A stretch of 46,856 nucleotides of DNA, from sequence record PZ379178.1; one strand, given 5' to 3'. This DNA comes from a phage. A program made the translations under genes and the position numbers. Shown here in pieces: positions 1-46,856 of the stretch. Each line of letters starts with the position of its first letter. Position 1 is the first letter of the stretch. The notes below the pieces were generated by a model, which made no database searches, had not been told where the DNA came from, and was given only the letters and a program-made list of their open reading frames with translations.

Positions 1-390
1 CCGGCTGTTATCGCGATAGATGAGTGCTTAACTGGAGACACGATGATAACCACCGATTCAGGGATGATGAGGATTGATAGCGAAGACCTTATCAATCATA
101 AAATAAAATGCATAAACGAAAGCACTGGTGATTACTTCTATCATAAGCCAAAAAGAGTTTTTACTAATGGTGTAAGACATGTATCATCAATTAAATTAGA
201 AAGCGGAGAGGAAATAAAATGCACGAGTACACACAAACTTTATTCGAACGGCTGCTGGGTAGGAGCGGGAAAACTTCGTATTGGGATGAATCTGTCGCTA
301 GACGGCTCGCAGGACAAATTTACGAAAAAGCTCCTGCGTGCAAGTGTGGCTGTGGTGAAAAAGTTATGCCGCATTCAAGCAAGGGGTTAG
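1..390 (+). CDS. Helicase N-fragment (3-prime end, continues from window end) fused to split-intein N-half
   Basis: Frame-1 ORF open from nt 1 to stop 388-390; PAVIAIDE (helicase motif II) then Cys codon 25-27 starting intein block A CLTGDT and block B GEEIKCTSTH; joins in frame with ORF 46437..46856. Confidence 0.6.
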   Translation, partial: PAVIAIDECLTGDTMITTDSGMMRIDSEDLINHKIKCINESTGDYFYHKPKRVFTNGVRHVSSIKLESGEEIKCTSTHKLYSNGCWVGAGKLRIGMNLSLDGSQDKFTKKLLRASVAVVKKLCRIQARG

Positions 391-1073
391 GCGTACTTCT
401 TAAGAACCCTTTCGATTTCTATTTGGATTACAGAACGGGCCATCATAATTCAACCGTCAACCCATCAATGGAGGTTGATGACTTTTTACATCAAAACATT
501 CTTGCGGCAATGGCTGGTGATGGTTGCTTGATTAAAAATACAGAAAAAGGAACGCATAGGCTATCTTGGAATATGGGAAATAAGGAGCACGCACTAAGCA
601 AGGTTGAAAGGTTTGCAAAACTAAACCCTAGATACAGGGAGAAGAAAAACCCTGGATTTGGCGACAACTGGTTTTGCGTATCAACATCATGTACGAAAGT
701 TCTGGATTCATATGCTGATAAGTACGGAAATTCTAAGGATGGTTACGATATTGGAAAGATATGCAGAGAGCTTAATCCAGTTGGTTGGGCTGCTTACTTT
801 GGTGATGATGGTCATTGCACTGTAAGCTCAGGGAAGAGGGTTGTAGAAATCCACACCGAATCATTTAGCAGGCGTGAAGTTCAATCAGTAGTTGATGCGC
901 TAATAGCATTTATTGCTAATGACGGAGTTAAGGTTAGAAGCTATATTGGCGGCAAGAAAAAGAGAGAGCTTTACTCAGTATCAATAACAACGAGGTCGGC
1001 ACAAGATGAGTTTTTTAAGAGAATTAGTAAGCACATGGAAAATGGCGTGGAATACAAAATCAAGCAAAATTAA
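366..1073 (+). CDS. LAGLIDADG-family homing endonuclease, free-standing ORF between intein halves
   Basis: Frame-0 ORF 219..1073 with two LAGLIDADG-like motifs (LAAMAGDGCL and AAYFGDDGHC); start 366 is first ATG with GGTGA-like SD, 219 is an alternative; overlaps both intein-half ORFs in a different frame. Confidence 0.55.
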   Translation: MPHSSKGLGVLLKNPFDFYLDYRTGHHNSTVNPSMEVDDFLHQNILAAMAGDGCLIKNTEKGTHRLSWNMGNKEHALSKVERFAKLNPRYREKKNPGFGDNWFCVSTSCTKVLDSYADKYGNSKDGYDIGKICRELNPVGWAAYFGDDGHCTVSSGKRVVEIHTESFSRREVQSVVDALIAFIANDGVKVRSYIGGKKKRELYSVSITTRSAQDEFFKRISKHMENGVEYKIKQN

Positions 1074-2715
1074 AGACATCTCACCCATTGGCAAGGAACT
1101 TGTTTGGGATATAGAGATGCCTGAGCACCATAATTTCATTGCTGACGGGGTCGTGGCACATAATTGCCACATGGTGGACCATATGGATATCGTAGAAGCT
1201 GAAGAGAATGAGGAAACATTCGAGCAGATGAGCACGAAGAAGGGTGAGATGGTCTTTAAGGATGGTGTGAATACCGGGCTTCTTGGCACTGGTCGCGCGC
1301 AATACACGTTAATCATTACCGAAATGAAGCGTCGATGCAAGGAGAAGTACGGTCGCGAACTTCGTATCTTTGGGTTAACTGGTAGCCCGTACCGTAACAA
1401 CGACCACATTGTAGTTAGTAACCCAAATGTCCGTGGATTCTGGCGCAAAACTGTAATGCAAGTGCCAACCAGCTACCTTGTTGACTTGGGGTTTGTTGTT
1501 CCTACTGTCTACGGTGAAGTTGGTGATTTGGGCTACGACCTTAGTGAGTTCACTCCTGATGGAAGTGATGGGGTTAAGGACTTCAGCAAGAAAGAAATGG
1601 ATGCGATGGCTGCAAAGATTCACGAAAACCAAACGATGACACAAAAGATAATGGGATTTGCTGCTAAGTTTATGGAAACAAGGAATGCTGCATTGGTAAC
1701 TTGCGCTGGCAAACAGCATTGCGAGGAGGCGGCAGCCGCACTTCCAGAAGGTGTTACTTGGGCGATAGTTACCAACTCCACTGGTGAGAAGAAGCGTAGA
1801 GAGATACTTGAGAAGGCAGCCAACGGAGAATATAAGTTCATATTTCAGATTGGTTGCCTCACAACTGGCGTAAACTGCCCCCCGTGGGATACAAGCATTA
1901 TCCTGAGGAAGGTTGGTAGCATTACTCTACTCATTCAGTTGCTTGGTCGTGGTATGCGTATCCTTAAGAAGAAGCACAAAGAAGCTGGAATGGTAAAAGA
2001 TGACCATGTTGTTCTTGATTTTGCTGGAACGCTTGATGATATGGCTGAACTTTACTTCGACCCAATTATAGAAGAGGTACAAGACCAGAAATTTAGGTCA
2101 GCAAGAAAGCGTGGTGATGAGCCAAGAATCTGTCCGGTATGCTCTTATGGGAACTCTCCATTCGCCAGGCGCTGCAATAACGTAATTGACGGGAAGCGCT
2201 GTGAGCACTTCTTTCAGTTTAGACTGTGTGAAGATATAGCGGACCCACAGACCAAAGCTATCATCAAGAAAGGATGCGGTGAGAAGAATGATATTGCAGC
2301 TAAGAATTGCAGATGCTGTGGTGAGATGCTCATAGACCCGAATGCTAAGTTATCAGGAAAAATGTATCGTAAGGGGGACTGGTTGCGAGTTTATGACTTC
2401 AAGATTGGGTTAACAAAGAACCAGTCAGGGATTGTTGCTTCATATGAGGTAATGGCTCATAGTGGAGATAAGTTCCGAGCTTATGAAACATTCTTCCCGG
2501 AGTCAGACCATCGTGTTTGTTCTGTCAAATGGAAGGCGTTTTGCTCAACTCACATCGAGAACAGGACTGAGGCTTTTAGGATTGGCAGATTGCGTAATGC
2601 TAAAATGATTATGACAAATGCACATCTTTTCCGTGCGCCGCTAAGGATTACGCACCGCAAGAATCAGAAGTCGCAAGATATTATCGCCAACAAATCATTT
2701 ACGATGGAGGATTGA
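1006..2715 (+). CDS. Split-intein C-half fused to helicase C-terminal fragment (SF2 DExH helicase with Cys-rich tail)
   Basis: N-terminus KELVWDIEMPEHHNFIADGVVAHN then C-H (intein blocks F/G, HN ending at 1164, +1 Cys at 1165-1167); downstream QLLGRGMR (helicase motif VI) and CxxC clusters; alternative start ATG 1042. Confidence 0.6.
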   Translation: MSFLRELVSTWKMAWNTKSSKIKDISPIGKELVWDIEMPEHHNFIADGVVAHNCHMVDHMDIVEAEENEETFEQMSTKKGEMVFKDGVNTGLLGTGRAQYTLIITEMKRRCKEKYGRELRIFGLTGSPYRNNDHIVVSNPNVRGFWRKTVMQVPTSYLVDLGFVVPTVYGEVGDLGYDLSEFTPDGSDGVKDFSKKEMDAMAAKIHENQTMTQKIMGFAAKFMETRNAALVTCAGKQHCEEAAAALPEGVTWAIVTNSTGEKKRREILEKAANGEYKFIFQIGCLTTGVNCPPWDTSIILRKVGSITLLIQLLGRGMRILKKKHKEAGMVKDDHVVLDFAGTLDDMAELYFDPIIEEVQDQKFRSARKRGDEPRICPVCSYGNSPFARRCNNVIDGKRCEHFFQFRLCEDIADPQTKAIIKKGCGEKNDIAAKNCRCCGEMLIDPNAKLSGKMYRKGDWLRVYDFKIGLTKNQSGIVASYEVMAHSGDKFRAYETFFPESDHRVCSVKWKAFCSTHIENRTEAFRIGRLRNAKMIMTNAHLFRAPLRITHRKNQKSQDIIANKSFTMED

Positions 2716-2716
2716 T

Positions 2717-3136
2717 ATGAAAATCACAGACAAAGGTGATTACCTCGAGTTCTATGGCGGACCGGTGAAGTCATGCCCAAAGGAAGACGATGAACAAATC
2801 TTCTGCTCTGATTGGGTGAAATACAACTATCCGCAGATTGTTTACTGGCACACGATTAACGAAAATAAAAAGAGCATTGGTCAAGCAAGAAAAGACCAAG
2901 CCAAGGGGCTTCTCAAAGGTGTGTCAGACTGCTTATTTCTGATACCTGAGTCATTGCGTGGCGGTTATCCATTTGGCGCCATAGAGTTAAAGAGGGCTGG
3001 TAAAACGCAAGCAAGCCCAGTTAGCAATGAGCAAAAGTCATTCCTAAAAAGCGTAAGTGAATCAGGCGGTTTCGCAGCGGTGGCTTATGGAAGAGAGGGT
3101 TTTCTTGCGGCATTCGCAGAGATGATAAGAAAATAG
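2717..3136 (+). CDS. VRR-NUC-like PD-(D/E)XK nuclease
   Basis: 139 aa; GVSDCLFLIP ... FGAIELKRAGKTQ matches D...E-x-K nuclease core of VRR-NUC proteins; immediately follows helicase. Confidence 0.55.
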   Translation: MKITDKGDYLEFYGGPVKSCPKEDDEQIFCSDWVKYNYPQIVYWHTINENKKSIGQARKDQAKGLLKGVSDCLFLIPESLRGGYPFGAIELKRAGKTQASPVSNEQKSFLKSVSESGGFAAVAYGREGFLAAFAEMIRK

Positions 3137-3185
3137 CACGAATTGCTAAAGACGAATTGGTGAGTTGGTGTATTATCAACTCATC
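3134..3185 (+). promoter_or_regulatory. Box-hairpin-leader cassette (candidate phage promoter)
   Basis: Box TAGCACGAATTGCTAAA 3134-3150, hairpin GAGTTG/CAACTC, TATTAT 3171-3176, leader CATCGAAACG from 3182; ATG 3215. Confidence 0.5.
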
Positions 3186-5546: not shown

Positions 5547-6020
5547 ATGATTTACGTGTTTGATATTGATGGAACTATTGCTAACAATGAACATAGAAGC
5601 CACCTCTTACCATCTAGTGACCTTCACTTGACTTCAAGTTGGAGTGATTACAATAGAGCCTGTTCTGGAGATTCACCGATAATTCCAATGATAAACATGA
5701 TGAATGCGTTAGCTGAGTTATCGCCAGTTTACATCATGACTTCAAGAAGTGACGAAGTCGAATGTATGACGCTTGAATGGCTTCAGTATAATAATATTAA
5801 TTATGATGGAATATATATGAGGAGTAGATTGGATAACAGAAATGACTATATCATTAAAGAGATGTGGCTAAATGATTTGTGTAATGGTGACAAAGCAAGT
5901 GTGATAATCTTTGAGGATAATCCTAATGTTATCAGTCACCTAAGGAATTGCGGATATACTGTAATGTCAGTTTGTGAATATAAAGAATTACCAAAAGACT
6001 GCGAATCTCACGGAGAATAA
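5547..6020 (+). CDS. HAD-superfamily phosphatase-like protein
   Basis: N-terminal FDIDGTIA (DxDGT HAD motif I); 73 nt downstream of promoter box 5474. Confidence 0.5.
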   Translation: MIYVFDIDGTIANNEHRSHLLPSSDLHLTSSWSDYNRACSGDSPIIPMINMMNALAELSPVYIMTSRSDEVECMTLEWLQYNNINYDGIYMRSRLDNRNDYIIKEMWLNDLCNGDKASVIIFEDNPNVISHLRNCGYTVMSVCEYKELPKDCESHGE

Positions 6021-6021
6021 A

Positions 6022-6576
6022 ATGAAAAAGTTAATCATCCTTAATGCACCCCCTGGTGCTGGAAAAGATACAGTTGCAGATATCATTGTTAATCTTGGAA
6101 TTTGCAAGGATAAGGTTTCATTCAAGTCACCAATGTTTAATGTTGCAAAAGGAATACTATCAAGCGATGAGTTTGATGAATTTATTAAGAATTACGATGA
6201 CCGAGAGTACAAAGAATCACCACATGAATTTCTTGGTGGAATGACGGTTCGTGAATTTATGATTTGGATTAGTGAGTCAGTTATGAAGCCAGTCTTTGGT
6301 GATGATGTTTTCGGTAAAAGGCTAGCGCAATCACTTGGTGATGGTTGCTATATCTGTGCTGATGGTGGCTTCGCTAGCGAGATTAATACTCTCATTGATT
6401 CAGGGGTTGAAGTTACTTTGATTAGACTTTTTAGGCCTGGCTATACTTTTGATGGAGATAGCCGCTCCTACATTCGCGGTGTCTGCGCAAGAGAAATTGA
6501 CGTTCATGTTGTAGATGGTGATATTGATGGAACCTCTGCTTTGGTAATGCACGTAATAAATAGCACGAATTGCTAA
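6022..6576 (+). CDS. P-loop kinase, dNMP-kinase-like
   Basis: N-terminal LNAPPGAGKDT P-loop and RPG motif as in phage deoxynucleoside-monophosphate kinases; start 6022 is ATG 1 nt after upstream stop (ORF track opens at 5974 in same frame); ends INSTNC* inside promoter box. Confidence 0.55.
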   Translation: MKKLIILNAPPGAGKDTVADIIVNLGICKDKVSFKSPMFNVAKGILSSDEFDEFIKNYDDREYKESPHEFLGGMTVREFMIWISESVMKPVFGDDVFGKRLAQSLGDGCYICADGGFASEINTLIDSGVEVTLIRLFRPGYTFDGDSRSYIRGVCAREIDVHVVDGDIDGTSALVMHVINSTNC

Positions 6577-7637: not shown

Positions 7638-8020
7638 AGGCTGCGTTAATTGCTGCGGTAATTATACTTTCTGGTTGCTCGGCAACATCTGCGCTGACCG
7701 GGTTGATTGGTAGTAAGCCAGAGATTAGCGCTCAAGCAGGTGCGGAGAATAACAAGGTTGGAGTAGGGCTAACTAATAAGGTTGATTCAAGTTCCAGCGC
7801 AAAGGCTGAAGTGAAGAACTCTAAGGTTGACACTCTTGATAGTTCAAGCGGTAAAAAGACTTCTGATAACTCAATCAAGGCATCAACAATCACGGCTGAG
7901 AAGATTGAAATCACCAACAATGATTCGTCTGCAATCCCGTGGATTGGGAGTGGAATCATGTTTTGCGTCATCATCATTCTGCTCTTAATGATATTCAGGA
8001 AAAACAAAAAAGCCCCGTAA
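7634..8020 (+). CDS. Unimolecular spanin (lipoprotein with C-terminal TMD)
   Basis: Lipobox LSGC after signal peptide, Ser/Thr-rich middle, C-terminal TMD IMFCVIIILLLMIF; position after endolysin as in T1-type lysis cassettes. Confidence 0.6.
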   Translation: MKAALIAAVIILSGCSATSALTGLIGSKPEISAQAGAENNKVGVGLTNKVDSSSSAKAEVKNSKVDTLDSSSGKKTSDNSIKASTITAEKIEITNNDSSAIPWIGSGIMFCVIIILLLMIFRKNKKAP

Positions 8021-8036
8021 TGGGGCTATTTTTATG
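8000..8036. terminator. Bidirectional terminator between convergent blocks
   Basis: Hairpin AGCCCC-GTAAT-GGGGCT flanked by A-run upstream and T-run downstream. Confidence 0.6.
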
Positions 8037-8367
8037 CAAACAATTCGTCATCACTCATGTTGGCTATGTTCATCATCTCACTGACGTAATCACTGGACCT
8101 ACCTTCAAGGCTCATGAATTCAAACTGAAATGGTCGCTTAATTGAACCCTTACACCAGTACACTCCATTAACTCCATCAAGATACCCAGCCGTAAGCATT
8201 CTCGCCATAAACTCCTTCGAGCAACTTGAGGCAAAATACCTTTCATCAACCCCGGCAGCCTTGGCCATCCTTGCGCAATCCTTGTGCTTATAGATGAATC
8301 TTGCCAGGTGCTGGCGGTTGAAGTTCTTGTATCCTTCGCAGAAATTATACAGGTCGAGCAGGTACAT
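8032..8367 (-). CDS. Hypothetical protein
   Basis: 111-aa ORF, last gene of minus-strand block, converges on bidirectional terminator at 8000-8036. Confidence 0.45.
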   Translation of the reverse strand: MYLLDLYNFCEGYKNFNRQHLARFIYKHKDCARMAKAAGVDERYFASSCSKEFMARMLTAGYLDGVNGVYWCKGSIKRPFQFEFMSLEGRSSDYVSEMMNIANMSDDELFA

Positions 8368-8370
8368 AAA

Positions 8371-9954
8371 TTACCCCAGCAATCGTGGATTAATGTAAAT
8401 TTTATCACCAATCAGGCATGTGTAGTTTTTCTCATCAAGCATAGGAATCAAGTGGTCCTTAATGCGAGTCATAATTCCAGCCTGAGCTTCAAAAGGTTTA
8501 ACCTTGCGTGCAGCCTCATACAACGAGCGAACACCAACAACACCTTTACCATTCTTGCCTTGCTTAATCAGGATATCAACCAGCTTGTTCATCTCGGCAT
8601 TGTCACCAGCATGACCAGCAGCACTAGCGGATGATAAATAAGTCTTGCTTAGTTCGTTGAAAATCATAACCGCTTCCTGCATTGTATCCAGTTCAATCTC
8701 TCTTGACTTTTGAGGGCTGGATCCGGCTGGTGAGAACCAGTTACGAATTACGTGCAGAACAGAAGCGATGCGGATTGCTTGCTTATCAAACTTACCAAGA
8801 GCACCGCGCAACATTGTGTGAGAATACTTGCCACCATCACCAAGATGAGGCTCCATCTCTTGACGAGCGCGGTTAAGGTAACGCATTGATGACGCGCTTA
8901 CAGTAAGTTTCGCTTCAACTTCATTCATAATCTCATGAACAAGACGGAAATAGTCTGCTTTCAGGCCGCCATCAATAGCCTCATAGGTTGAATCACCATT
9001 CTCATCAACAAATACGCGCTCACCAAGAAATGACTTCTCACGCACCAGAAGGAAGCGCTCAGATACACCGATACCACGCGCACCGGCATTCATAATGGCG
9101 TTAATTGTTTCATCCTGCGCAATTACAGAGATACAACCCATAGCCACGAAACTCATGTTGTTTTCTGCATTCGCGCGCGCAATAGATACATTACCCGCAT
9201 CCCACGCCTTAAGCACAAGTTCGCTGTTCGTTTTCTTCGAGCCATCACCGTAAGTCATGCCTAACAGTGAGTTGACGCTAGTAGCCTCATCAGAGATTAC
9301 CGCAAAATTACCCTGGCGATTGTTGATTCGCGCAAGACCTTCCGGTGTAGTATCGGAGACAGGGAATACTATATCGCATAGCTTCTCGAGCTTCTCCTCT
9401 AAATCCTCCTTCTCCTCAAAAAGTGAAGCCATTTCAGAAGGTGATTTCTCCTGCTTCATCTCTTTAGCCAGAGCGGACAGTTTAGCCATAATCTTTTTTC
9501 GATCACGTTTACGTACTTCATTCAACCGCTCAGTCTCAGCAATCATCGGCGCAATTGATAGCGAGTTAATGGCTGATTTACCAGTTGAAGGCGGCTGACT
9601 TGTTACCACGTACAAAGATGTTGGCTGTTGGGTTCCATGATACTCGACAGTAAAACGCCCAAGCATTGCAGCAGAAACACAACCAAGAAAGTGCATGTAA
9701 GCTGACGACTCAGGGAACTGAACCGAGCGAGCGATATTAGCCGATAGCTTACCAACAACATCAATATCATTACCGAGTGAGATTACTGGATACTTATCAT
9801 TACCTGTATCAATCTCGACAGGTGCTTTCCAGAACGATTGAGACTGTCGATAGCCATTGGCATTAATAGCCACGCGAAGCGGTGGTAGGTTGTCATTGGC
9901 AGCGATTGCCATAACCTGCTCAACAGATAGTTTATCTTCGTTGAAATCAAACAT
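8371..9954 (-). CDS. P-loop NTPase-like protein of unknown function
   Basis: 527 aa; Walker A-like PPSTGKS and Walker B-like FAVISDEA; promoter box cassette immediately upstream (10011-10026, minus orientation). Confidence 0.5.
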   Translation of the reverse strand: MFDFNEDKLSVEQVMAIAANDNLPPLRVAINANGYRQSQSFWKAPVEIDTGNDKYPVISLGNDIDVVGKLSANIARSVQFPESSAYMHFLGCVSAAMLGRFTVEYHGTQQPTSLYVVTSQPPSTGKSAINSLSIAPMIAETERLNEVRKRDRKKIMAKLSALAKEMKQEKSPSEMASLFEEKEDLEEKLEKLCDIVFPVSDTTPEGLARINNRQGNFAVISDEATSVNSLLGMTYGDGSKKTNSELVLKAWDAGNVSIARANAENNMSFVAMGCISVIAQDETINAIMNAGARGIGVSERFLLVREKSFLGERVFVDENGDSTYEAIDGGLKADYFRLVHEIMNEVEAKLTVSASSMRYLNRARQEMEPHLGDGGKYSHTMLRGALGKFDKQAIRIASVLHVIRNWFSPAGSSPQKSREIELDTMQEAVMIFNELSKTYLSSASAAGHAGDNAEMNKLVDILIKQGKNGKGVVGVRSLYEAARKVKPFEAQAGIMTRIKDHLIPMLDEKNYTCLIGDKIYINPRLLG

Positions 9955-10029
9955 TACTTCTCTCCGTGTTGTTCTGAGCGGCCATTATATCAATAGCCGC
10001 TTATAATGCATTATCAATTAGTGCTATTT
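9955..10029 (-). promoter_or_regulatory. Box-hairpin-leader cassette (minus orientation)
   Basis: Reverse-complement box TAGCACTAATTGATAA (plus coords 10011-10026), hairpin GCGGCT.../...GGCCGC, TATAAT, leader ACGGAGAGAAG; precedes ATG 9954. Confidence 0.5.
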
Positions 10030-10184
10030 AGTAAGATGCAATCTATCTTGTAGTAGTCAAAGTGATTTTCTGAAGATGTTTCTTTGTTATATTTAAACTC
10101 CTGTGCTTTGAATTCTTCATCGAAAGCGGCAATCACTTCGCTTCCATCATAGTGTGTGCAACCACTTACAATGTATAATTTCAT
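10014..10184 (-). CDS. Hypothetical small protein (56 aa)
   Basis: ATG overlaps upstream stop (ATGA); ORF ends NSTN* inside promoter box; below ORF-track cutoff. Confidence 0.3.
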   Translation of the reverse strand: MKLYIVSGCTHYDGSEVIAAFDEEFKAQEFKYNKETSSENHFDYYKIDCILLNSTN

Positions 10185-10731: not shown

Positions 10732-10806
10732 GATCTCTTGCTCTCTTTCGTTTCGATGGAGTAAATATACGCCATCCGTGGCGGTGAGTTTTAGCAATTA
10801 GTGCTA
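10732..10806 (-). promoter_or_regulatory. Box-hairpin-leader cassette (minus orientation)
   Basis: Reverse-complement box TAGCACTAATTGCTAAA (10790-10806), hairpin CGCCACGGATGGCG, leader CATCGAAACGAAAGAGAG; precedes ATG 10731. Confidence 0.5.
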
Positions 10807-10955
10807 TTTTTTCTGGCCTTCTCAATTGCCTTCAACATAATCTCGTGAGACTCAAGCAGGTCCTCGTTAAACCAGTCCCCGCAAGGCCAACCCTTTCCGC
10901 TGTAAGCACTAATTATTTCCAGATCGAAATAGTTTATCTCAGATGGTAAAAGCAT
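10791..10955 (-). CDS. Hypothetical small protein (54 aa)
   Basis: Start overlaps upstream stop (TAATG); ends KNSTNC* inside promoter box 10790-10806. Confidence 0.3.
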   Translation of the reverse strand: MLLPSEINYFDLEIISAYSGKGWPCGDWFNEDLLESHEIMLKAIEKARKNSTNC

Positions 10956-11355: not shown

Positions 11356-11426
11356 ATCTCTCTCCTCGTTGTTGATGGATTCATTATGGTATCGTCGCCA
11401 GTTTTTGTCATTAGCAAAAAGTGCTA
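11356..11426 (-). promoter_or_regulatory. Box-hairpin-leader cassette (minus orientation)
   Basis: Reverse-complement box TAGCACTTTTTGCTAA (11411-11426), CATAAT, leader CATCAACAACGAGGAGAGAG; precedes ATG 11355. Confidence 0.5.
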
Positions 11427-11440
11427 TTCGTTGGATTTAT

Positions 11441-11548
11441 CTATTGTTGCAGCTATTGCAATGATTATCATGATTATTGCACATATAGCAATATTGCATG
11501 GAATGCAATGATGTTTTTGATTGTTGCAGAATTTGCAATGATTGATGT
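11441..11548. repeat. Iteron-like TTGCA repeat array
   Basis: ATTGTTGCAG-N-TTGCAATGATT at 11443-11467 and 11519-11543, plus inverted repeats ATTGC...GCAAT (11476-11492) and TTGCAT-GGA-ATGCAA (11494-11508). Confidence 0.6.
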
Positions 11549-11705
11549 GGGGTGAATGAATGGTGGATGAACTACCATACAAGTTGATTTTGATTCTTGC
11601 TGAGCCAATTTGGATATACACGTTATCGAAGTTATGGTGTGTATATGAGGTGCGCTTCCGAAGAATCATACACGCCTACCACGCTAGATTACGCAATGGT
11701 TACAT

Positions 11706-11762
11706 AATAATATCTATATATATCAACCTTTTACTATATTATTATTATTATTATATATATGT
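11706..11762. repeat. AT-rich (TTA)n element, copy A
   Basis: TAATATCTATATATATCAACCTTTTACT-ATATTATTATTATTATTATATATAT; near-identical copy at 39501-39556. Confidence 0.8.
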
Positions 11763-12027
11763 ATGTATATGGTGTAGATTGGTCGTATGGATGGGTCGAT
11801 AGTTTTTCTATGAAAACTACTAATTTTATCTATATAGATACATATGCATATCCCCGGCGAATCCGCGTAAAATCTTACACAGGGTAATTACACCAGCTAT
11901 AGCTGGGCTGAGAGGTCAAAAAGCGTAACCAATGCAGATATAAACACAACATAACACTTGATAACGCGTATATTCATGATACCATGGTTTCATCTTAACG
12001 AAGAGCAACCAATCAGGAGTAACGAAT

Positions 12028-13704: not shown

Positions 13705-13851
13705 TTTTATATATCCATGAGTACTGGACTGGGAAGTTTAACACCGTTCGACATGTTAGAGTTTATGAAGATTATGTGAGTGCTTTCAATCAACAGAAGG
13801 TACTTGGTGGCACTGTCAAGGTTTGCGATGTTATAGATGAGATTTACTAAA

Positions 13852-13925
13852 TAGCATGAATTGCTAAACAATTGCCGGAGAAATCCGGCATAATTACCAC
13901 ATCGACAACGAGATGGAGTATAGAT
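13852..13925 (+). promoter_or_regulatory. Box-hairpin-leader cassette
   Basis: Box TAGCATGAATTGCTAAA 13852-13868, hairpin GCCGGA/TCCGGC, CATAAT, leader CATCGACAACGAGATGG from 13900; near-duplicate of cassette 6561. Confidence 0.5.
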
Positions 13926-38538: not shown

Positions 38539-38622
38539 TTTAGTATTCCCTAGAATGTGTGTTTCGTTTCAATGGAGTAATGATATCTCATCATTGAGAT
38601 TTGTCTTTAGCTATTCGTGCTA
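38539..38622 (-). promoter_or_regulatory. Box-hairpin-leader cassette (minus orientation)
   Basis: Reverse-complement box TAGCACGAATAGCTAAA (38606-38622), hairpin, leader CATTGAAACGAAACACAC; precedes lipoprotein gene ATG 38538. Confidence 0.5.
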
Positions 38623-39291
38623 TTTACTTTCCAGTAACAGCTTAATGTCGATACCAAGTTTATTCTCGATCAATCCGGTCAGTGCGTCCGTCTTTTCTTT
38701 AAGAGCAAAGCATTGCGTTTCATACTTAAACCTTGCTTCCATTTCATCGGAACGTGATGCCCAAGACTGCCGAGCCTCGCAAGCAAGCATATCTAGTTTT
38801 TCATCTGTATTCTTATCCATGAGAAGGATTTCATTGATTCGCTGCTCAGCAACGATTCGCTGACTAAGGTGAGCGTTCTGCGCATTAGCCACACCAAGCA
38901 TCATGCGTGCCTCTTTTAGCTCATCAATACTAACCATCTTGCTGATTACTTCCTGTTGAGTGTTAATGGTTTGCTGCATCTCTTTTAGCTTGTTTAGAAC
39001 CGAACGACGAACAGACTTTGACTCACGCATTCCGACAAGAAGCATTTGCTCCATATTAAGCACTGGTGAGTTGATCGACTTTCTATAACCACCTCTTCCC
39101 TCACTTTTGATTACGAAACTTTCGTAGTCAAACTCAAACCCCTCAATCTCATCCTCTATCCTCTCAACAAAGTCATTGTGTCGAACATCAGATTCACCAG
39201 CAACTAACCTCGCTGGGTTGATAACTTCATTCAAAAACTGATAACTGTTCATTTTCACATCTTCATTTAGTAGAGCTAGGTTCATTTTCAT
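38620..39291 (-). CDS. Rha-like phage regulatory protein (putative)
   Basis: N-terminal SYQFLNEVINPARLVAGESDVRHNDFVERI resembles Rha-family N-domain, coiled-coil C-terminus; start 39291 after AGAGAG SD. Confidence 0.4.
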   Translation of the reverse strand: MKMNLALLNEDVKMNSYQFLNEVINPARLVAGESDVRHNDFVERIEDEIEGFEFDYESFVIKSEGRGGYRKSINSPVLNMEQMLLVGMRESKSVRRSVLNKLKEMQQTINTQQEVISKMVSIDELKEARMMLGVANAQNAHLSQRIVAEQRINEILLMDKNTDEKLDMLACEARQSWASRSDEMEARFKYETQCFALKEKTDALTGLIENKLGIDIKLLLESK

Positions 39292-39380
39292 CTCTCTTTT
39301 TTTATTCTGGCTAAGCACCATTGCCGCCATGCGCACAAATATACCCAAATACTGCATCTTGTCTTTAGCAAATCGTGCTA
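39292..39380 (-). promoter_or_regulatory. Box cassette (minus orientation)
   Basis: Reverse-complement box TAGCACGATTTGCTAAA (39364-39380), TATATT, AAAAAAAGAGAG SD; precedes Rha-like gene. Confidence 0.45.
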
Positions 39381-39500
39381 TTTATCGCAAATTTACCCAT
39401 AAATCATGGTTACGCGTAATCGATGTAACTCGATGTATACCATATGCATCCGCGGGAAATCGTATACGCCTAGTTACGCCAGTTTACGCCATAGTTACAC

Positions 39501-39556
39501 TATAATATCTATATATATCAACCTTTTACTCTTATTATTATTATTATATATATTAC
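39501..39556. repeat. AT-rich (TTA)n element, copy B
   Basis: TAATATCTATATATATCAACCTTTTACT-CTTATTATTATTATTATATATAT; 28-nt core identical to 11708-11735. Confidence 0.8.
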
Positions 39557-40069: not shown

Positions 40070-41041
40070 ATGACATTTAAAGTTTATACGAACGACGAGC
40101 TAACCAATGAAGCCTATCACGAAGAGAAAGACCATATCTCTGGCTCTTCGCTGGCTGAGATTCTTGCTACTTCTCCAGCAAAATGGAAATTTAAGCAGCG
40201 CAGCAACTCAAGTGCAGCACTAAAGTTTGGCACTTTGAGCCATACGATGATGCTAGAACGTGAAGTGTTCGATTCCACTTACATGCGAGCTACTGACTTT
40301 GACGAAGTGGAAGGATTGATTACTAGCCAAACAGCTTTATCGGCAGCGCTTAAAAAAGTTGGCGTTTCCGGCACGTCAGGGAAGGGTTATAACGAGCTTG
40401 TGGAGATGATGTATAAGTCTGGCGAGGATTGGCCGGTTAAATGGTTAATTGAGCAGCAGGAGAGCGCTGAGGCGTTAATTAGTGGCAAGGAGCTGGTTAG
40501 TGCTAAAGATTACGACAAGGTAATCGCAATGCGAGAAGTTCTGACCAATATTCCGGCTTACGATGCGGTAATTAATTCACCAACAGCACAGAAAGAGCTG
40601 TCAATCTTTGGTGAGATTCTCGGCTGCGGCGTTAAGGTTCGGCTTGACCACGTGGATGTTGTTAATGGAGTGGTTTACATTACTGACTATAAAACAACAG
40701 CAGACGCAAGCCCGAGAGGATTTGGTAAGTCAGCTTATGACCATGGTTACCTGTGTAAGATGGCACTTCAGCGCGATTTGTTTGTTAAAGCATTCAACGA
40801 AAAGCGTAAGGTTGTGGTTCGACTTCTGGCTCAGGAGAAAACAGAGCCCTACTTACCTATGTGCTACACACTTACAGATGAGCAGCTTCGCATTGGGCGC
40901 TTACAATATTTAGAGGCTCTGGCTGTTTACAAGCAGTGCAAGGAACTTGATGATTGGCCTGGATACAGTAATGGGATTACAGAGCAAGATTTGATGATTC
41001 CTGAGTGGGTAAATAAGCAGTATCAAGAATTACTAAAATAG
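40070..41041 (+). CDS. PD-(D/E)XK-type exonuclease (putative recombination exonuclease)
   Basis: VRLDHVDV ... VYITDYKTT matches D...D/E-x-K nuclease core; directly upstream of annealase and SSB. Confidence 0.5.
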   Translation: MTFKVYTNDELTNEAYHEEKDHISGSSLAEILATSPAKWKFKQRSNSSAALKFGTLSHTMMLEREVFDSTYMRATDFDEVEGLITSQTALSAALKKVGVSGTSGKGYNELVEMMYKSGEDWPVKWLIEQQESAEALISGKELVSAKDYDKVIAMREVLTNIPAYDAVINSPTAQKELSIFGEILGCGVKVRLDHVDVVNGVVYITDYKTTADASPRGFGKSAYDHGYLCKMALQRDLFVKAFNEKRKVVVRLLAQEKTEPYLPMCYTLTDEQLRIGRLQYLEALAVYKQCKELDDWPGYSNGITEQDLMIPEWVNKQYQELLK

Positions 41042-41111
41042 CACGAATTGCTAAAGACAAAATTAACTGGTGGGGTATCATTACCCCATCGAAACGAAAG
41101 AGAGATGTGGA
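41039..41111 (+). promoter_or_regulatory. Box-hairpin-leader cassette
   Basis: Box TAGCACGAATTGCTAAA 41039-41055, hairpin GGGGTA/TACCCC, leader CATCGAAACGAAAGAGAG from 41087. Confidence 0.5.
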
Positions 41112-41762
41112 ATGAAAACTTCTGAGCAAAACAAGCAAGTATTGAAGGCGTTATTCGAGGCTAAATCAAAGTTTGCTAAGGCTGAAAAGTCTAAGCAGAA
41201 CTCACACCTCAAGAATAAGTACGCTACTTTAGATGATGTTTTAGCAGCTGTAGAGCCAGGATTGGCTGATAGCGGACTGGTGATGTTTCAGTCGATGATT
41301 GATGATGATGTAAGCACTCGTATTAAGGTTGAAACAACAGTTTACCATGCAGAATCTGGAGAGTGGGTTAGTTTCCTGACCATAGTCCCAATCAGTAAGC
41401 AAGATGCTCAAGGTTATGGGTCATCACTTACATACGCTCGCCGTTACGCAATCACAGCGGCGTTAGGTTTAAGCCAGGCAGATGATGATGGTCAGTTAGC
41501 AGTTAAAGGCATCAACTCATTCAAGAAAGACTTGGCTAAGTGCAGTACTCTTGATGACCTCCGTGATGTTTACAAAGAGGCGAAGCAGTCACTTGATTCA
41601 GCCGGCTGGTTAGTGCTTGAGCCTCACATTATCGAGCGCAAGGTAGAGATTCAGGCCAATGCAACTAGCGGCTTTAACCCAGCAAAACCTAAGCAGGTTG
41701 CACAAAAGCCTGTTCAAGAAGAAAAAGTTGAAGTACAATCTCAAGAAATCGATACATTCTAA
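41112..41762 (+). CDS. Single-strand annealing protein, Erf-family-like
   Basis: KNKYATLDDVLAAV ... SSLTYARRYAITAALGL resembles conserved ERF core; ATG 41112 is 73 nt downstream of promoter box 41039. Confidence 0.55.
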   Translation: MKTSEQNKQVLKALFEAKSKFAKAEKSKQNSHLKNKYATLDDVLAAVEPGLADSGLVMFQSMIDDDVSTRIKVETTVYHAESGEWVSFLTIVPISKQDAQGYGSSLTYARRYAITAALGLSQADDDGQLAVKGINSFKKDLAKCSTLDDLRDVYKEAKQSLDSAGWLVLEPHIIERKVEIQANATSGFNPAKPKQVAQKPVQEEKVEVQSQEIDTF

Positions 41763-41802: not shown

Positions 41803-42219
<417 letters not shown>

Positions 42220-44843: not shown

Positions 44844-44866
44844 TAAAAAAACCTCCCGAAGGAGGT
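44844..44866 (-). terminator. Rho-independent terminator after primase gene (minus strand)
   Basis: CCTCC-CGAA-GGAGG with A7 on plus strand (T-run on minus). Confidence 0.55.
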
Positions 44867-45792
44867 TAGTCTAGTAATTCGTTTGCCTTGTATATTCTCT
44901 TTCTTATGCCTGACTTGAAAAAATTACCATCATTTGGAATTACAATATCAAGATTGCGATCGTCAGCAACGGCAAGTAAATCAAAAGAGTTGCGAGTACA
45001 AGCGACGCGTAACTTGTAGTTCCTAAGCGCATAAGCAACCATTTCCATGTTGTAGCTGGAGTGGCAAACAAGCACGCAGCGATTTCCAGTAGCAAGATGA
45101 ACGCGAACACCATCAATCCAATTATCGACCAGATAAGCGTACTCATCATCTTTAAAGGTGCCAATAATAGAAACAGACTGGCGAGTATAATCTTTTGCAG
45201 CATAGCTAACATCTCCATCTTCATTGATAAACATTACATTGCACATATCATCTGATATGCCGTCACTATAAGCCATAAAGCACGGTACTGCGTGTATTAG
45301 TTCGCCTGATTTCGTCCTGCCAACATCAAAACCAAATTCGCTATAGATACCCTCGTATGTACTTAGCGGAGTTAATTCTACTCTTTCCGTCCTTTCCATT
45401 ATCTCTAAGCATCTTTCGTGATCAATCTTGGCGCCCATTTTGTATGGTGATGTACGAGATGCTCTTTTGTTTGCTTTTGATATAACCTCTACTGGAACGA
45501 GATTCAGCCAATCACCAAGCGTATCTATTGTTTCGCTATAACTCATTCCCGAGCATTTCATAACCCAGCCAACACCAGAATCATTTCCGCACTGGTTGCA
45601 TATTGCTGCGCCATTTCCCTTTTCCTGACCTAACTCATCAGTGAAGCGAAACCTATCCCTGCCAAAGCAGTAAGGGCACGGACCATGTTTCTTGCTGAGA
45701 TTCTCCTTTGTCCATCCAAGGTTCGATGAGTAGAATTCGCCCCACATTCCCTTCATTTTTGCTATCACTTCGCTCTTATCATGGTGACTCAT
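44866..45792 (-). CDS. DNA primase-like protein (zinc-binding domain)
   Basis: N-terminal CPYC-x17-CNQC zinc-ribbon; start 45792 with GGAGG SD; promoter box upstream (45844-45860). Confidence 0.5.
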   Translation of the reverse strand: MSHHDKSEVIAKMKGMWGEFYSSNLGWTKENLSKKHGPCPYCFGRDRFRFTDELGQEKGNGAAICNQCGNDSGVGWVMKCSGMSYSETIDTLGDWLNLVPVEVISKANKRASRTSPYKMGAKIDHERCLEIMERTERVELTPLSTYEGIYSEFGFDVGRTKSGELIHAVPCFMAYSDGISDDMCNVMFINEDGDVSYAAKDYTRQSVSIIGTFKDDEYAYLVDNWIDGVRVHLATGNRCVLVCHSSYNMEMVAYALRNYKLRVACTRNSFDLLAVADDRNLDIVIPNDGNFFKSGIRKRIYKANELLD

Positions 45793-45860
45793 AGTTACCT
45801 CCATAAACAATAAAGGCACTATACACAATGTATAGCGCCACTGTTTATCAATTCGTGCTA
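45793..45860 (-). promoter_or_regulatory. Box-hairpin-leader cassette (minus orientation)
   Basis: Reverse-complement box TAGCACGAATTGATAAA (45844-45860), palindrome CTATACATTGTGTATAG, GGAGG SD; precedes primase ATG 45792. Confidence 0.5.
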
Positions 45861-46340
45861 TTTCCCTTGCTCTTTATCTTTTCGTGCTGCTTCGTTAGCG
45901 GCCTTAATCTTGCGCCATGAGCGACACTCTGGTTTAGTTGCTAGCTCAGCCTCAGTAACAACACGCAGCATATGACGCTTCTTGCAACGTAGAGTTAGCG
46001 GTTTCCCGTTACCGTCGAATTGCAGATCTGGTCGGCAGAATGTAGCGCGAAAACCTTCTCCATTTCGCTTATAGTAGTTGTGCGACAACTGAGCGCCACG
46101 CGCAGAAATCATCCCGCGATCAAACCATTGCTCTACAGTCTGGTGAGATACATTTAACTGCTTGGCGATATTGGCCTTCGTGCCGTAGAAATCAAGAACC
46201 ATCTCCAGACGAGCTCGTAGCCCAGCCTTTACTTCATCTTTCAATACGTAGTAGCCTGACGGTCGTTTGCGCTGTTTCTTGTCTTGCGTGCGGATGGTTC
46301 CGTTATTGCCGTTGATAGTTCGCTTGTCAATTTCACACAT
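45858..46340 (-). CDS. HTH-type DNA-binding protein (putative regulator)
   Basis: 160 aa, basic; TKANIAKQLNVSHQTVEQW resembles helix-turn-helix. Confidence 0.45.
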   Translation of the reverse strand: MCEIDKRTINGNNGTIRTQDKKQRKRPSGYYVLKDEVKAGLRARLEMVLDFYGTKANIAKQLNVSHQTVEQWFDRGMISARGAQLSHNYYKRNGEGFRATFCRPDLQFDGNGKPLTLRCKKRHMLRVVTEAELATKPECRSWRKIKAANEAARKDKEQGK

Positions 46341-46436: not shown

Positions 46437-46856
46437 ATGCTTCCAGTAGAGCGCTTAGTGGCGAACTTTGATAAAGAGAAAATTAAACAGATTCAGAAAG
46501 ATTACCAGTTTGGAGACATAACGCCTTACGAATTCCAGTGCGTGACATTTGACGCAATCGGTAAGGCTATTGGCAAGTACGAAGCGCCATTCATCGCAGA
46601 CCTGTCGGTGTCTGCTGGTAAGACAATTATACTCGCCATGATTGGGAAACGAATGGAACAGCTTGGCCTTCCTTACATGGTCCTATCTCGCCAGTCAGAG
46701 ATTATCAGCCAGAACGCAGAGGAACTTCGTAATTTCGGCATCCGTAATAGCGTCTATTGCGCTGGCCTTAACGTTAAATCAGTTTACTACCCAACCATAG
46801 TGGCTAGCGAGGGTACGGCTGCCAACGGCTTATTTAAGGGGCTTGGTGACTATGTT
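46437..46856 (+). CDS. Helicase N-fragment, 5-prime part (runs off window end, continues at nt 1)
   Basis: ATG 46437 is 73 nt downstream of promoter box 46364; Walker A SVSAGKT; 140 complete codons to window end, in frame with nt 1 ORF. Confidence 0.6.
   Translation, partial: MLPVERLVANFDKEKIKQIQKDYQFGDITPYEFQCVTFDAIGKAIGKYEAPFIADLSVSAGKTIILAMIGKRMEQLGLPYMVLSRQSEIISQNAEELRNFGIRNSVYCAGLNVKSVYYPTIVASEGTAANGLFKGLGDYV

Follow-up and report, generated by a model that had tools for sequence, protein, structure and literature searches.

What is the function of the large P-loop protein encoded on the minus strand of phage sequence record PZ379178.1, between positions 8371 and 9954? A first-pass annotation of this 46,856-nucleotide (nt) stretch, which is analyzed here as a whole and called the window, had noted there an open reading frame (ORF) of 527 amino acids (aa) with Walker-like motifs and had given it no known role. 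The answer that we favor, at a probability of roughly 70%, is that the gene encodes the phage's ring-shaped replicative fork helicase, a DUF3987 AAA+ ATPase of superfamily 6 with an MCM-like fold. The ORF was placed exactly (8371..9954, minus strand, stop codon included). It starts with ATG, has its own ribosome-binding site, GGAGAG, read off the sequence 5 nt before the start codon at 9960..9965(-), and encodes a protein with a predicted mass of 58 kDa and a predicted isoelectric point of 6.0; the homolog counts given below put it far beyond chance.

DNA similarity places the window among the T1-like coliphages (Drexlerviridae, Braunvirinae). It is a complete genome, circularly permuted, as the reading frame of a superfamily-2 (SF2) helicase runs from its last bases into its first.

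Family membership and distribution

The protein is a bona fide DUF3987 member insofar as the profile match, the Walker motifs and a C-terminal winged helix are all present. The Pfam DUF3987 profile (PF13148) matches aa 81-433 over profile positions 3-352 of 364 with 139.2 bits, the cut-off being 27 (E 2.6e-40), and PHROG 2373, 'DNA helicase', matches over the full length at E 9e-255. An NCBIfam scan assigned no family and gave a single chance match, to TtrS. We used two alignments of relatives, A1 and a wider one, A2, whose 23 members reach down to 23% identity; every member of A2 matches DUF3987. The further feature of this family, a fused or adjacent primase, is absent in the window and present in relatives.

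DUF3987 proteins have been classed as superfamily-6, MCM-related proteins and predicted to be phage replicative helicases (Kazlauskas et al. 2016; PMC4889955; PMC5862659). They are often, not obligatorily, fused or adjacent to primases and have a winged helix-turn-helix at the C-terminus (PMC4889955; also PMC5862659), and a published HHsearch links the family to MCM at 98% probability (PMC4889955). One distant member with a PriCT-DUF3987 architecture, AgaPH, was described in 2025; it oligomerizes, binds its primase-polymerase and unwinds 5'-tailed and forked DNA with 5'-3' polarity, dependent on ATP or dATP and on Walker A and B (PMC11724360). Given a family match of 139 bits over a cut-off of 27, the published replicative-helicase prediction (PMC4889955) and a relative with helicase activity (PMC11724360), the label 'unknown role' can be dropped.

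The family is widespread. We found 174 homologs in a set of 5.8 billion proteins, and a profile search of 1.84 billion cluster representatives returned 6083 relatives at E<=0.001. By tblastn, 922 phage records contain the protein (899 at full length), mostly from phages of Klebsiella, Escherichia, Salmonella and Shigella; the top match is phiA2-1 with 97.7% identity, and the T1 ortholog (MK213796 44517-46085) is 56.6% identical. The position of the gene beside the spanin gene is syntenic across relatives, and the ORF is a syntenic core gene of T1-like phages rather than a variable accessory gene.

Public records call the orthologs 'DNA helicase', 'putative helicase', 'DUF3987 domain-containing protein' or 'hypothetical protein', and the label in RefSeq and PHROGs is 'DNA helicase'. 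Neither the gene nor its family nor the predicted role is new to the literature or to database annotation, and in this respect the locus is an ordinary feature. The ORF is no longer one of unknown role and can be listed as a conserved DUF3987/MCM-fold helicase gene of the Drexlerviridae. Clear homology to a standard replication ATPase, which the first-pass annotation had named as the observation that would overturn it, is in essence what these searches returned.

Conserved residues

The Walker motifs noted by eye are real. Walker A, the P-loop, is QPPSTGKS at aa 120-127 (9574..9597, on the minus strand like all parts of the ORF given below), with Q120, P121, P122, S123, G125, K126 and S127 invariant in A1. 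Walker B is AVISDE at aa 218-223 (9286..9303; model strand 217-221); E223 is invariant in both A1 and A2, and D222 is replaced by Ala or Ser in some relatives. It had also been remarked that no helicase motif set could be recognized, and this is correct: the SF1/SF2 set is absent, for the protein belongs to the AAA+ ATPases rather than to the RecA-type helicases. The residues invariant throughout A2 are Q120, P121, K126, S221, E223, R260, Q280, E299, R300, R383 and K388.

The remaining conserved positions fall where an AAA+ motor would have its sensors and its arginine finger. The sensor-1 strand, VIAQDE at aa 277-282 (9109..9126; model strand 273-279), has I278, A279, D281 and E282 invariant in A1 and Q280 nearly so. 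Just before strand 301-305 stands a SERF motif at aa 298-301 (9052..9063), with E299 and R300 unchanged throughout both alignments. The motif resembles the 'SRF' arginine-finger motif of MCM, and by this analogy R300 is a candidate arginine finger; a SERF motif with an invariant R300 would be compatible with a hexameric ring in which the arginine finger acts in trans. The sensor-2 region in the lid, RGALGKFD at aa 383-390 (8785..8808; model helix 380-387), has G384, G387 and D390 invariant in A1. Judged from the aligned sequences, the pattern of conservation is that of an active, oligomeric AAA+ motor, with a putative residue-by-residue equivalence to MCM.

Predicted structure

Structure prediction had been suggested as a check on the unknown role, and it gave a confident AAA+ model. 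The AlphaFold2 monomer model, built from 27 homologs, has a mean pLDDT of 89 and a pTM of 0.87 and consists, in order, of an N-terminal helical region (aa 1-97), a Rossmann-like ATPase core, a helical insertion, a hairpin, a lid and a winged helix. When the model was compared with the PDB by Foldseek, the 50 matches listed were MCM chains only, with a best E of 1e-5, and it is to MCM that the AAA+ core plus lid is most similar.

The first 45 residues form three helices in the model (aa 1-45, 9820..9954) and are specific to the T1-like subfamily; distant relatives align just from profile position ~40-60 onward. This region may bind partners. After the Walker A helix comes an antiparallel, coiled-coil-like helical insertion (aa 127-192, 9379..9576; model helices 126-166 and 172-191), which varies in length across the family, is shorter in distant members and as a profile matches coiled-coil PDB chains only. 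A beta-hairpin (aa 253-271, 9142..9198; strands 255-258 and 267-270) precedes the sensor-1 strand, modeled at 273-279. It carries R260, invariant in A1 and A2, and by analogy with MCM is a candidate for the pre-sensor-1 beta-hairpin, which would touch DNA in the central channel. The helical lid (~aa 329-446) is followed by the C-terminal winged-helix domain (aa 447-527, 8374..8616), both as seen in the AlphaFold2 model.

Sequence and profile searches of the PDB with the protein, A1 and the wider A2 gave chance matches alone (6zsv at E 0.09, and coiled coils), and therefore there is no solved relative that can be detected by sequence. A lenient Pfam scan of the 23 members of A2 for a signal of MCM, Mg-chelatase or AAA_5 was likewise empty.

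Linkage to primases

The window encodes a DnaG/T7-type zinc-ribbon primase at 44866..45828(-) (PHROG 510 'DNA primase', E 5e-95; Pfam Zn_Ribbon_Prim), which we presume to be the working partner of the helicase. The evidence for such a partnership comes from relatives. In larger homologs the DUF3987 domain is preceded by extra domains: a DnaG CHC2 zinc ribbon is fused to it in P0152 and a BT4734-type archaeo-eukaryotic primase (AEP) domain in P0239, and P0263 has a sub-threshold match to the helix-bundle domain (HBD) of NrS-1 polymerase (20.5 bits for a cut-off of 27.9, E 4e-4). In P0187, a homolog of 666 aa, the N-terminal, primase-binding domain of DnaB is fused to the DUF3987 AAA+ domain. 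P0187 is a natural domain swap between the two classes of helicase, in which the DUF3987 AAA+ domain replaces the RecA-type C-terminal domain of DnaB.

Gene neighborhoods were examined on five contigs of other phages, whose homologs are 35-39% identical. The DUF3987 gene directly adjoins a DnaG-type primase gene in L006, L007 and L009, and the two genes overlap by 4 nt in L007 and in the short contig L008. The cluster on the primase-adjacent contigs includes an SF2 helicase and a DUF3799 (RecE-like) exonuclease, with ERF and a single-stranded DNA-binding protein (SSB) as well in L007; this is the T1-like gene set, but contiguous. In L010 the primase position is taken by a 310-aa gene without assignment, and L005, a contig of only 2.2 kb, is uninformative. 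In the phage collection, records with the helicase and with the primase are almost equally numerous for each host genus, for example, respectively, 420 and 469 for Klebsiella, 295 and 317 for Escherichia, and 37 and 37 for Shigella.

Proposed role and mechanism

If the gene encodes the fork helicase, its own promoter cassette would direct transcription by host RNA polymerase early in infection, and the product would assemble as a ring, presumably a hexamer. In each ATP site one subunit would contribute Walker A and B, and its neighbor would supply R300 in trans. The R260 hairpin would line the central channel and pull single-stranded DNA through it, and the fork would thereby be unwound. DNA loading and partner contacts may be the tasks of the C-terminal winged helix and of the subfamily-specific N-terminus, and a 111-aa winged-helix protein encoded by the next gene may assist in them. 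Partners of the helicase would be the primase and SSB of the phage and, since the phage has no DNA polymerase, the host DNA polymerase III (Pol III) holoenzyme. Erf, the RecE-like exonuclease, the VRR-NUC nuclease and the SF2 helicase would act in recombination-dependent replication and in the processing or remodeling of forks.

Several observations count against assigning the gene this function. At the level of sequence, Pfam MCM (PF00493) matches none of the 23 members of A2 at E<=10, and HMMER finds no PDB match to MCM chains even at E<=10; the link to MCM is therefore at the level of the fold only and rests on the fold searches and the published HHsearch. The N-terminal OB-fold/zinc domain of MCM is absent, aa 1-97 of the model being all helical with no Cys/His cluster, and no helix-2 insert is evident in the secondary-structure string, which has helix 204-214 between strand 2 and Walker B. 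The known polarity of MCM is 3'-5', in conflict with the 5'-3' polarity of the sole DUF3987 protein assayed. In the window the primase gene is ~9.4 kb from the helicase gene, across the circular junction, with SF2 helicase, nucleotide-kinase and lysis genes between them. No iterons or origin were found in and around the helicase gene, just a 13-nt repeat in two copies inside the ORF, with no tandem arrays nearby. T1 DNA synthesis is reported to need host elongation genes (Bourque and Christensen, 1980), which would weaken the case for a phage-encoded fork helicase if dnaB is among them; on T1 amber-mutant genetics and host dna-gene requirements, the literature collection searched contained nothing. 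Papers on T1-like phages give the name helicase to the SF2 protein and ignore the DUF3987 gene or list it as hypothetical, as DUF3987 or as 'putative helicase' (PMC11447400, PMC10450929, PMC8004638). Our search of the literature found no experiment on any T1-like ortholog.

A more specific proposal, tentative and on present evidence rather doubtful, is a hybrid T1-family replisome. Here a fork helicase with the fold of archaeal and eukaryotic MCM, but maybe with the 5'-3' polarity of bacterial DnaB, would load itself by means of its own winged helix and the co-transcribed 111-aa protein and would link host Pol III with a T7-type primase. If true, this would provide an accessible E. coli model for the DUF3987 helicase class. 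As there is no solved structure detectable by sequence or profile, and as the tested member has a polarity opposite to that of MCM, a T1-like ortholog would be a convenient system in which to study how a motor with the MCM fold operates alongside Pol III and a bacterial primase.

Alternative readings

The gene might instead encode a helicase for recombination, repair or fork restart, similar to MCM8/9 or ComM, with bulk unwinding left to the SF2 helicase or to host DnaB. MCM8/9 and ComM are indeed among the structural neighbors of the model, the phage is fully equipped for recombination (RecE-like exonuclease, Erf, SSB and VRR-NUC nuclease), the gene clusters with DUF3799 exonuclease, ERF and SSB in the homologous contigs, and it is the SF2 protein that papers on T1-like phages call the helicase (PMC11447400). 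We nevertheless think this reading unlikely. Primase fusion, translational coupling and the DnaB N-terminal domain all point to a helicase of the primosome type, and the scanned window ORFs and the IME542 annotation contain no other candidate for a ring helicase. SF2 helicases of the DEAD/ResIII type are not known to serve as ring-shaped fork helicases, and an intein remnant splits the SF2 gene both in the window and in AN_ECEAS.

An origin-binding initiator or a helicase-loader ATPase, which would melt the origin or deliver host DnaB, is a reading to which we assign a still smaller chance. It is close to what the first-pass annotation had suggested, and of that suggestion a P-loop ATPase most probably engaged in replication stands, whereas the initiator or loader part gives way to the MCM-like motor and the lack of nearby iterons. 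When DnaA, DnaC/IstB and ORC/Cdc6 were considered by clade core and family profile, the protein did not group with these AAA+ initiators and loaders, and the structural matches to ORC/Cdc6 span only 83-117 residues, short of the full AAA+ motor. A host dnaB requirement, if real, would favor a loader, and this reading overlaps with the possible self-loading function. Least probable by far is an abortive-infection-like, anti-defense or other accessory nucleoside triphosphatase unrelated to replication. Large P-loop proteins of early regions are sometimes related to defense, which was the prior of the first-pass annotation and not the result of a tool, but we found no such relative: a PADLOC-DB v2 scan gave only a spurious match to the coiled-coil segment of JetC (E 0.028, 10 bits), ~900 phage genomes have the gene as part of their conserved, syntenic core, and a helicase is what its catalytic motifs, its fold and its linkage to primases indicate.

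Two further candidate roles were considered and rejected. The abstract of a study of phage helicases that trigger retrons names UvsW of T4 and D10 of T5 as triggers, not a DUF3987 protein (PMC12746101). For Druantia and Zorya, escape mutations lie instead in virion proteins (PMC13192584).

Comparison with known systems

AgaPH of Seonamhaeicola sp. S2-3 and YfjI of the E. coli CP4-57 prophage belong to the same Pfam family, DUF3987, as the phage protein. In common with DUF3987 helicases it has a Walker A of the type GxxxxGK[ST], an acidic pair in Walker B and a small C-terminal domain. It differs from AgaPH in having neither a PriCT domain nor a primase fusion, and in possessing the subfamily-specific N-terminus and the insertion of ~65 helical residues after Walker A. 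AgaPH has an adjacent AEP PrimPol, whereas the presumed partner of the phage protein is a primase of the DnaG/T7 type encoded elsewhere.

Identity to MCM proteins (archaeal MCM, eukaryotic MCM2-7, MCM8/9 and the B. cereus prophage protein BcMCM) is just 11-17%, and in addition to lacking the OB-fold/zinc domain and an evident helix-2 insert the phage protein has an extra coiled-coil insertion. It folds, and would work, like an MCM motor but stands outside the MCM family. The Rep/primase-helicase of SaPI (DUF927) and Cch of SCCmec, self-loading helicases of mobile genetic elements, belong to different Pfam families and are clearly less similar in structure than MCM; both recognize their own origins, and none was found near the phage helicase gene. 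DnaB and T7 gp4, of superfamily 4, are likely functional equivalents, being ring helicases with a DnaG/T7-type primase. Their fold is that of RecA, whereas the phage protein has the AAA+ fold and no match to DnaB_C. Unlike in T7 gp4, the T7-type zinc-ribbon primase of this phage is a separate protein without a helicase half.

Transcription unit and promoter cassette

The helicase gene lies in a minus-strand block that extends from 8032 to ~11355, and from its position alone we infer that this block is expressed early. In the same transcription unit a 111-aa gene (8032..8367, minus strand) starts 3 nt downstream of the 527-aa ORF. Its product is modeled as a small winged helix and ends in a conserved acidic motif, SD(D/E)ELF; it is possibly a DNA-binding or adaptor partner of the helicase. 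A bidirectional hairpin resembling an intrinsic terminator (8011..8027) closes the minus-strand unit as well as the convergent lysis genes, which are those for holin, endolysin and spanin.

The first-pass annotation had the gene driven by a box cassette, and we agree that a promoter can be predicted there (9978..10029, minus strand), composed of a box, an extended -10 and a hairpin. The 19-nt box, AAATAGCACTAATTGATAA, is a perfect copy at 10011-10029(-), 57 nt upstream of the ATG. Its consensus, AAATAGCACGAATTGCTAA, occurs 16 times in the window, where 0.01 copies are expected, for example at 3131-3149(+), 6558-6576(+), 10011-10029(-), 10791-10809(-), 13849-13867(+), 41036-41054(+) and 45845-45863(-). 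Within the box lies an inverted repeat, TAGCA/TGCTA, and 14 of the 16 copies are oriented like their downstream gene. Most boxes are followed by a -35-like AGACA, a short hairpin specific to the site and a -10-like hexamer in or beside the hairpin loop. At the helicase gene the extended -10, TGATATAAT at 9984-9992(-), lies inside the loop of the hairpin GCGGC...GCCGC (9978-10000).

The cassette is kept upstream of the orthologs in AugustePiccard, IME542 and T1. One hairpin position shows compensatory stem changes between phages (GCGGC/GCCGC, GCGGT/ACCGC and GCGGG/CCCGC), and T1 has a different hairpin, around TATCAT. Owing to its weak -35, the promoter of the helicase gene escaped a standard sigma-70 scan. 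Visual inspection and a pattern search revealed the extended -10, whose pattern taken alone is not enriched (2 matches, with 2.2 expected). The 19-nt box could be the binding site of a regulator or an UP-like element. On read-through transcripts the cassette hairpins could serve to process or stabilize the RNA; alternatively, they could be hot-spots of recombination, as are the promoter stem-loops of T4.

The boxes also leave a trace in unrelated proteins. The products of ORFs 5974-6576, 10014-10184 and 10791-10955 all end in ...NSTN(C) before the stop codon, because the boxes at 6558-6576, 10011-10029 and 10791-10809 overlap the 3' ends of the upstream genes.

The region upstream of the helicase gene differs in the nearest records, Escherichia phages ES and AN_ECEAS, which are ~91-94% identical to the window over the shared parts. 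Both have ~335 extra bases near the helicase gene (2926 record bases for 2591 query bases, in two pieces), and in AN_ECEAS an annotated HNH endonuclease gene (L011 12351-12848) lies directly upstream of it. Compared with that position, window 9955-10013 contains only a 56-aa ORF and the promoter cassette.

Other features of the genome

Gene content was taken from PHROG and Pfam scans of the window ORFs together with the annotation of relatives. The window has the T1-type set of terminase, head, tail and lysis genes, and in addition a RecE-like exonuclease (40070-41041), Erf (41070-41762), SSB (41803-42219) and a Cro-like regulator (45858-46340). An SF2 helicase of the DEAD/ResIII type, a VRR-NUC nuclease, a polynucleotide kinase and a deoxynucleoside monophosphate kinase are also encoded. 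No DNA polymerase, DnaB-type helicase or helicase loader was found among the scanned window ORFs or in the full IME542 annotation.

The SF2 helicase gene occupies 46437-46856 and continues into 1-2715(+). It is interrupted inside its DECH box by an intein, with an N-splice site at ~22-25 (AIDE|CLTG) and a C-splice site at ~1162-1167 (AHN|CHMV). The intein frame is broken by a stop at 388-390, an ORF for a LAGLIDADG homing endonuclease lies at 219-1073 in another frame, and the C-terminal part of the helicase restarts at 1006. AN_ECEAS has the same split annotation, namely a 270-aa N-part, an unannotated gap and a 558-aa 'DNA helicase'. There are two readings of this arrangement: a split intein ('fractured gene') accompanied by a free-standing endonuclease, or a decayed intein, which would leave the SF2 helicase inactive. 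Together with the box-plus-hairpin cassettes, this intein-split gene looks more unusual than the DUF3987 helicase.

Two intergenic regions stand out by their composition. Between the minus-strand and plus-strand blocks is an AT-rich, divergent region of 670 bp (11356-12027) with (TAT)6, several A/T-rich inverted repeats, two 46-nt direct repeats at 11447-11539 and minus-strand promoter-like sites; it holds no clear iteron array and is a candidate early control region or origin. The second, at 39416-39547, sits between an anti-repressor-like gene (38620-39357, minus strand) and the recombination genes. It is rich in repeats, with GTAATCGAT repeated 2.3 times, TACGCCTAGT 3.3 times and TTA 5 times, and is a candidate regulatory or origin region.

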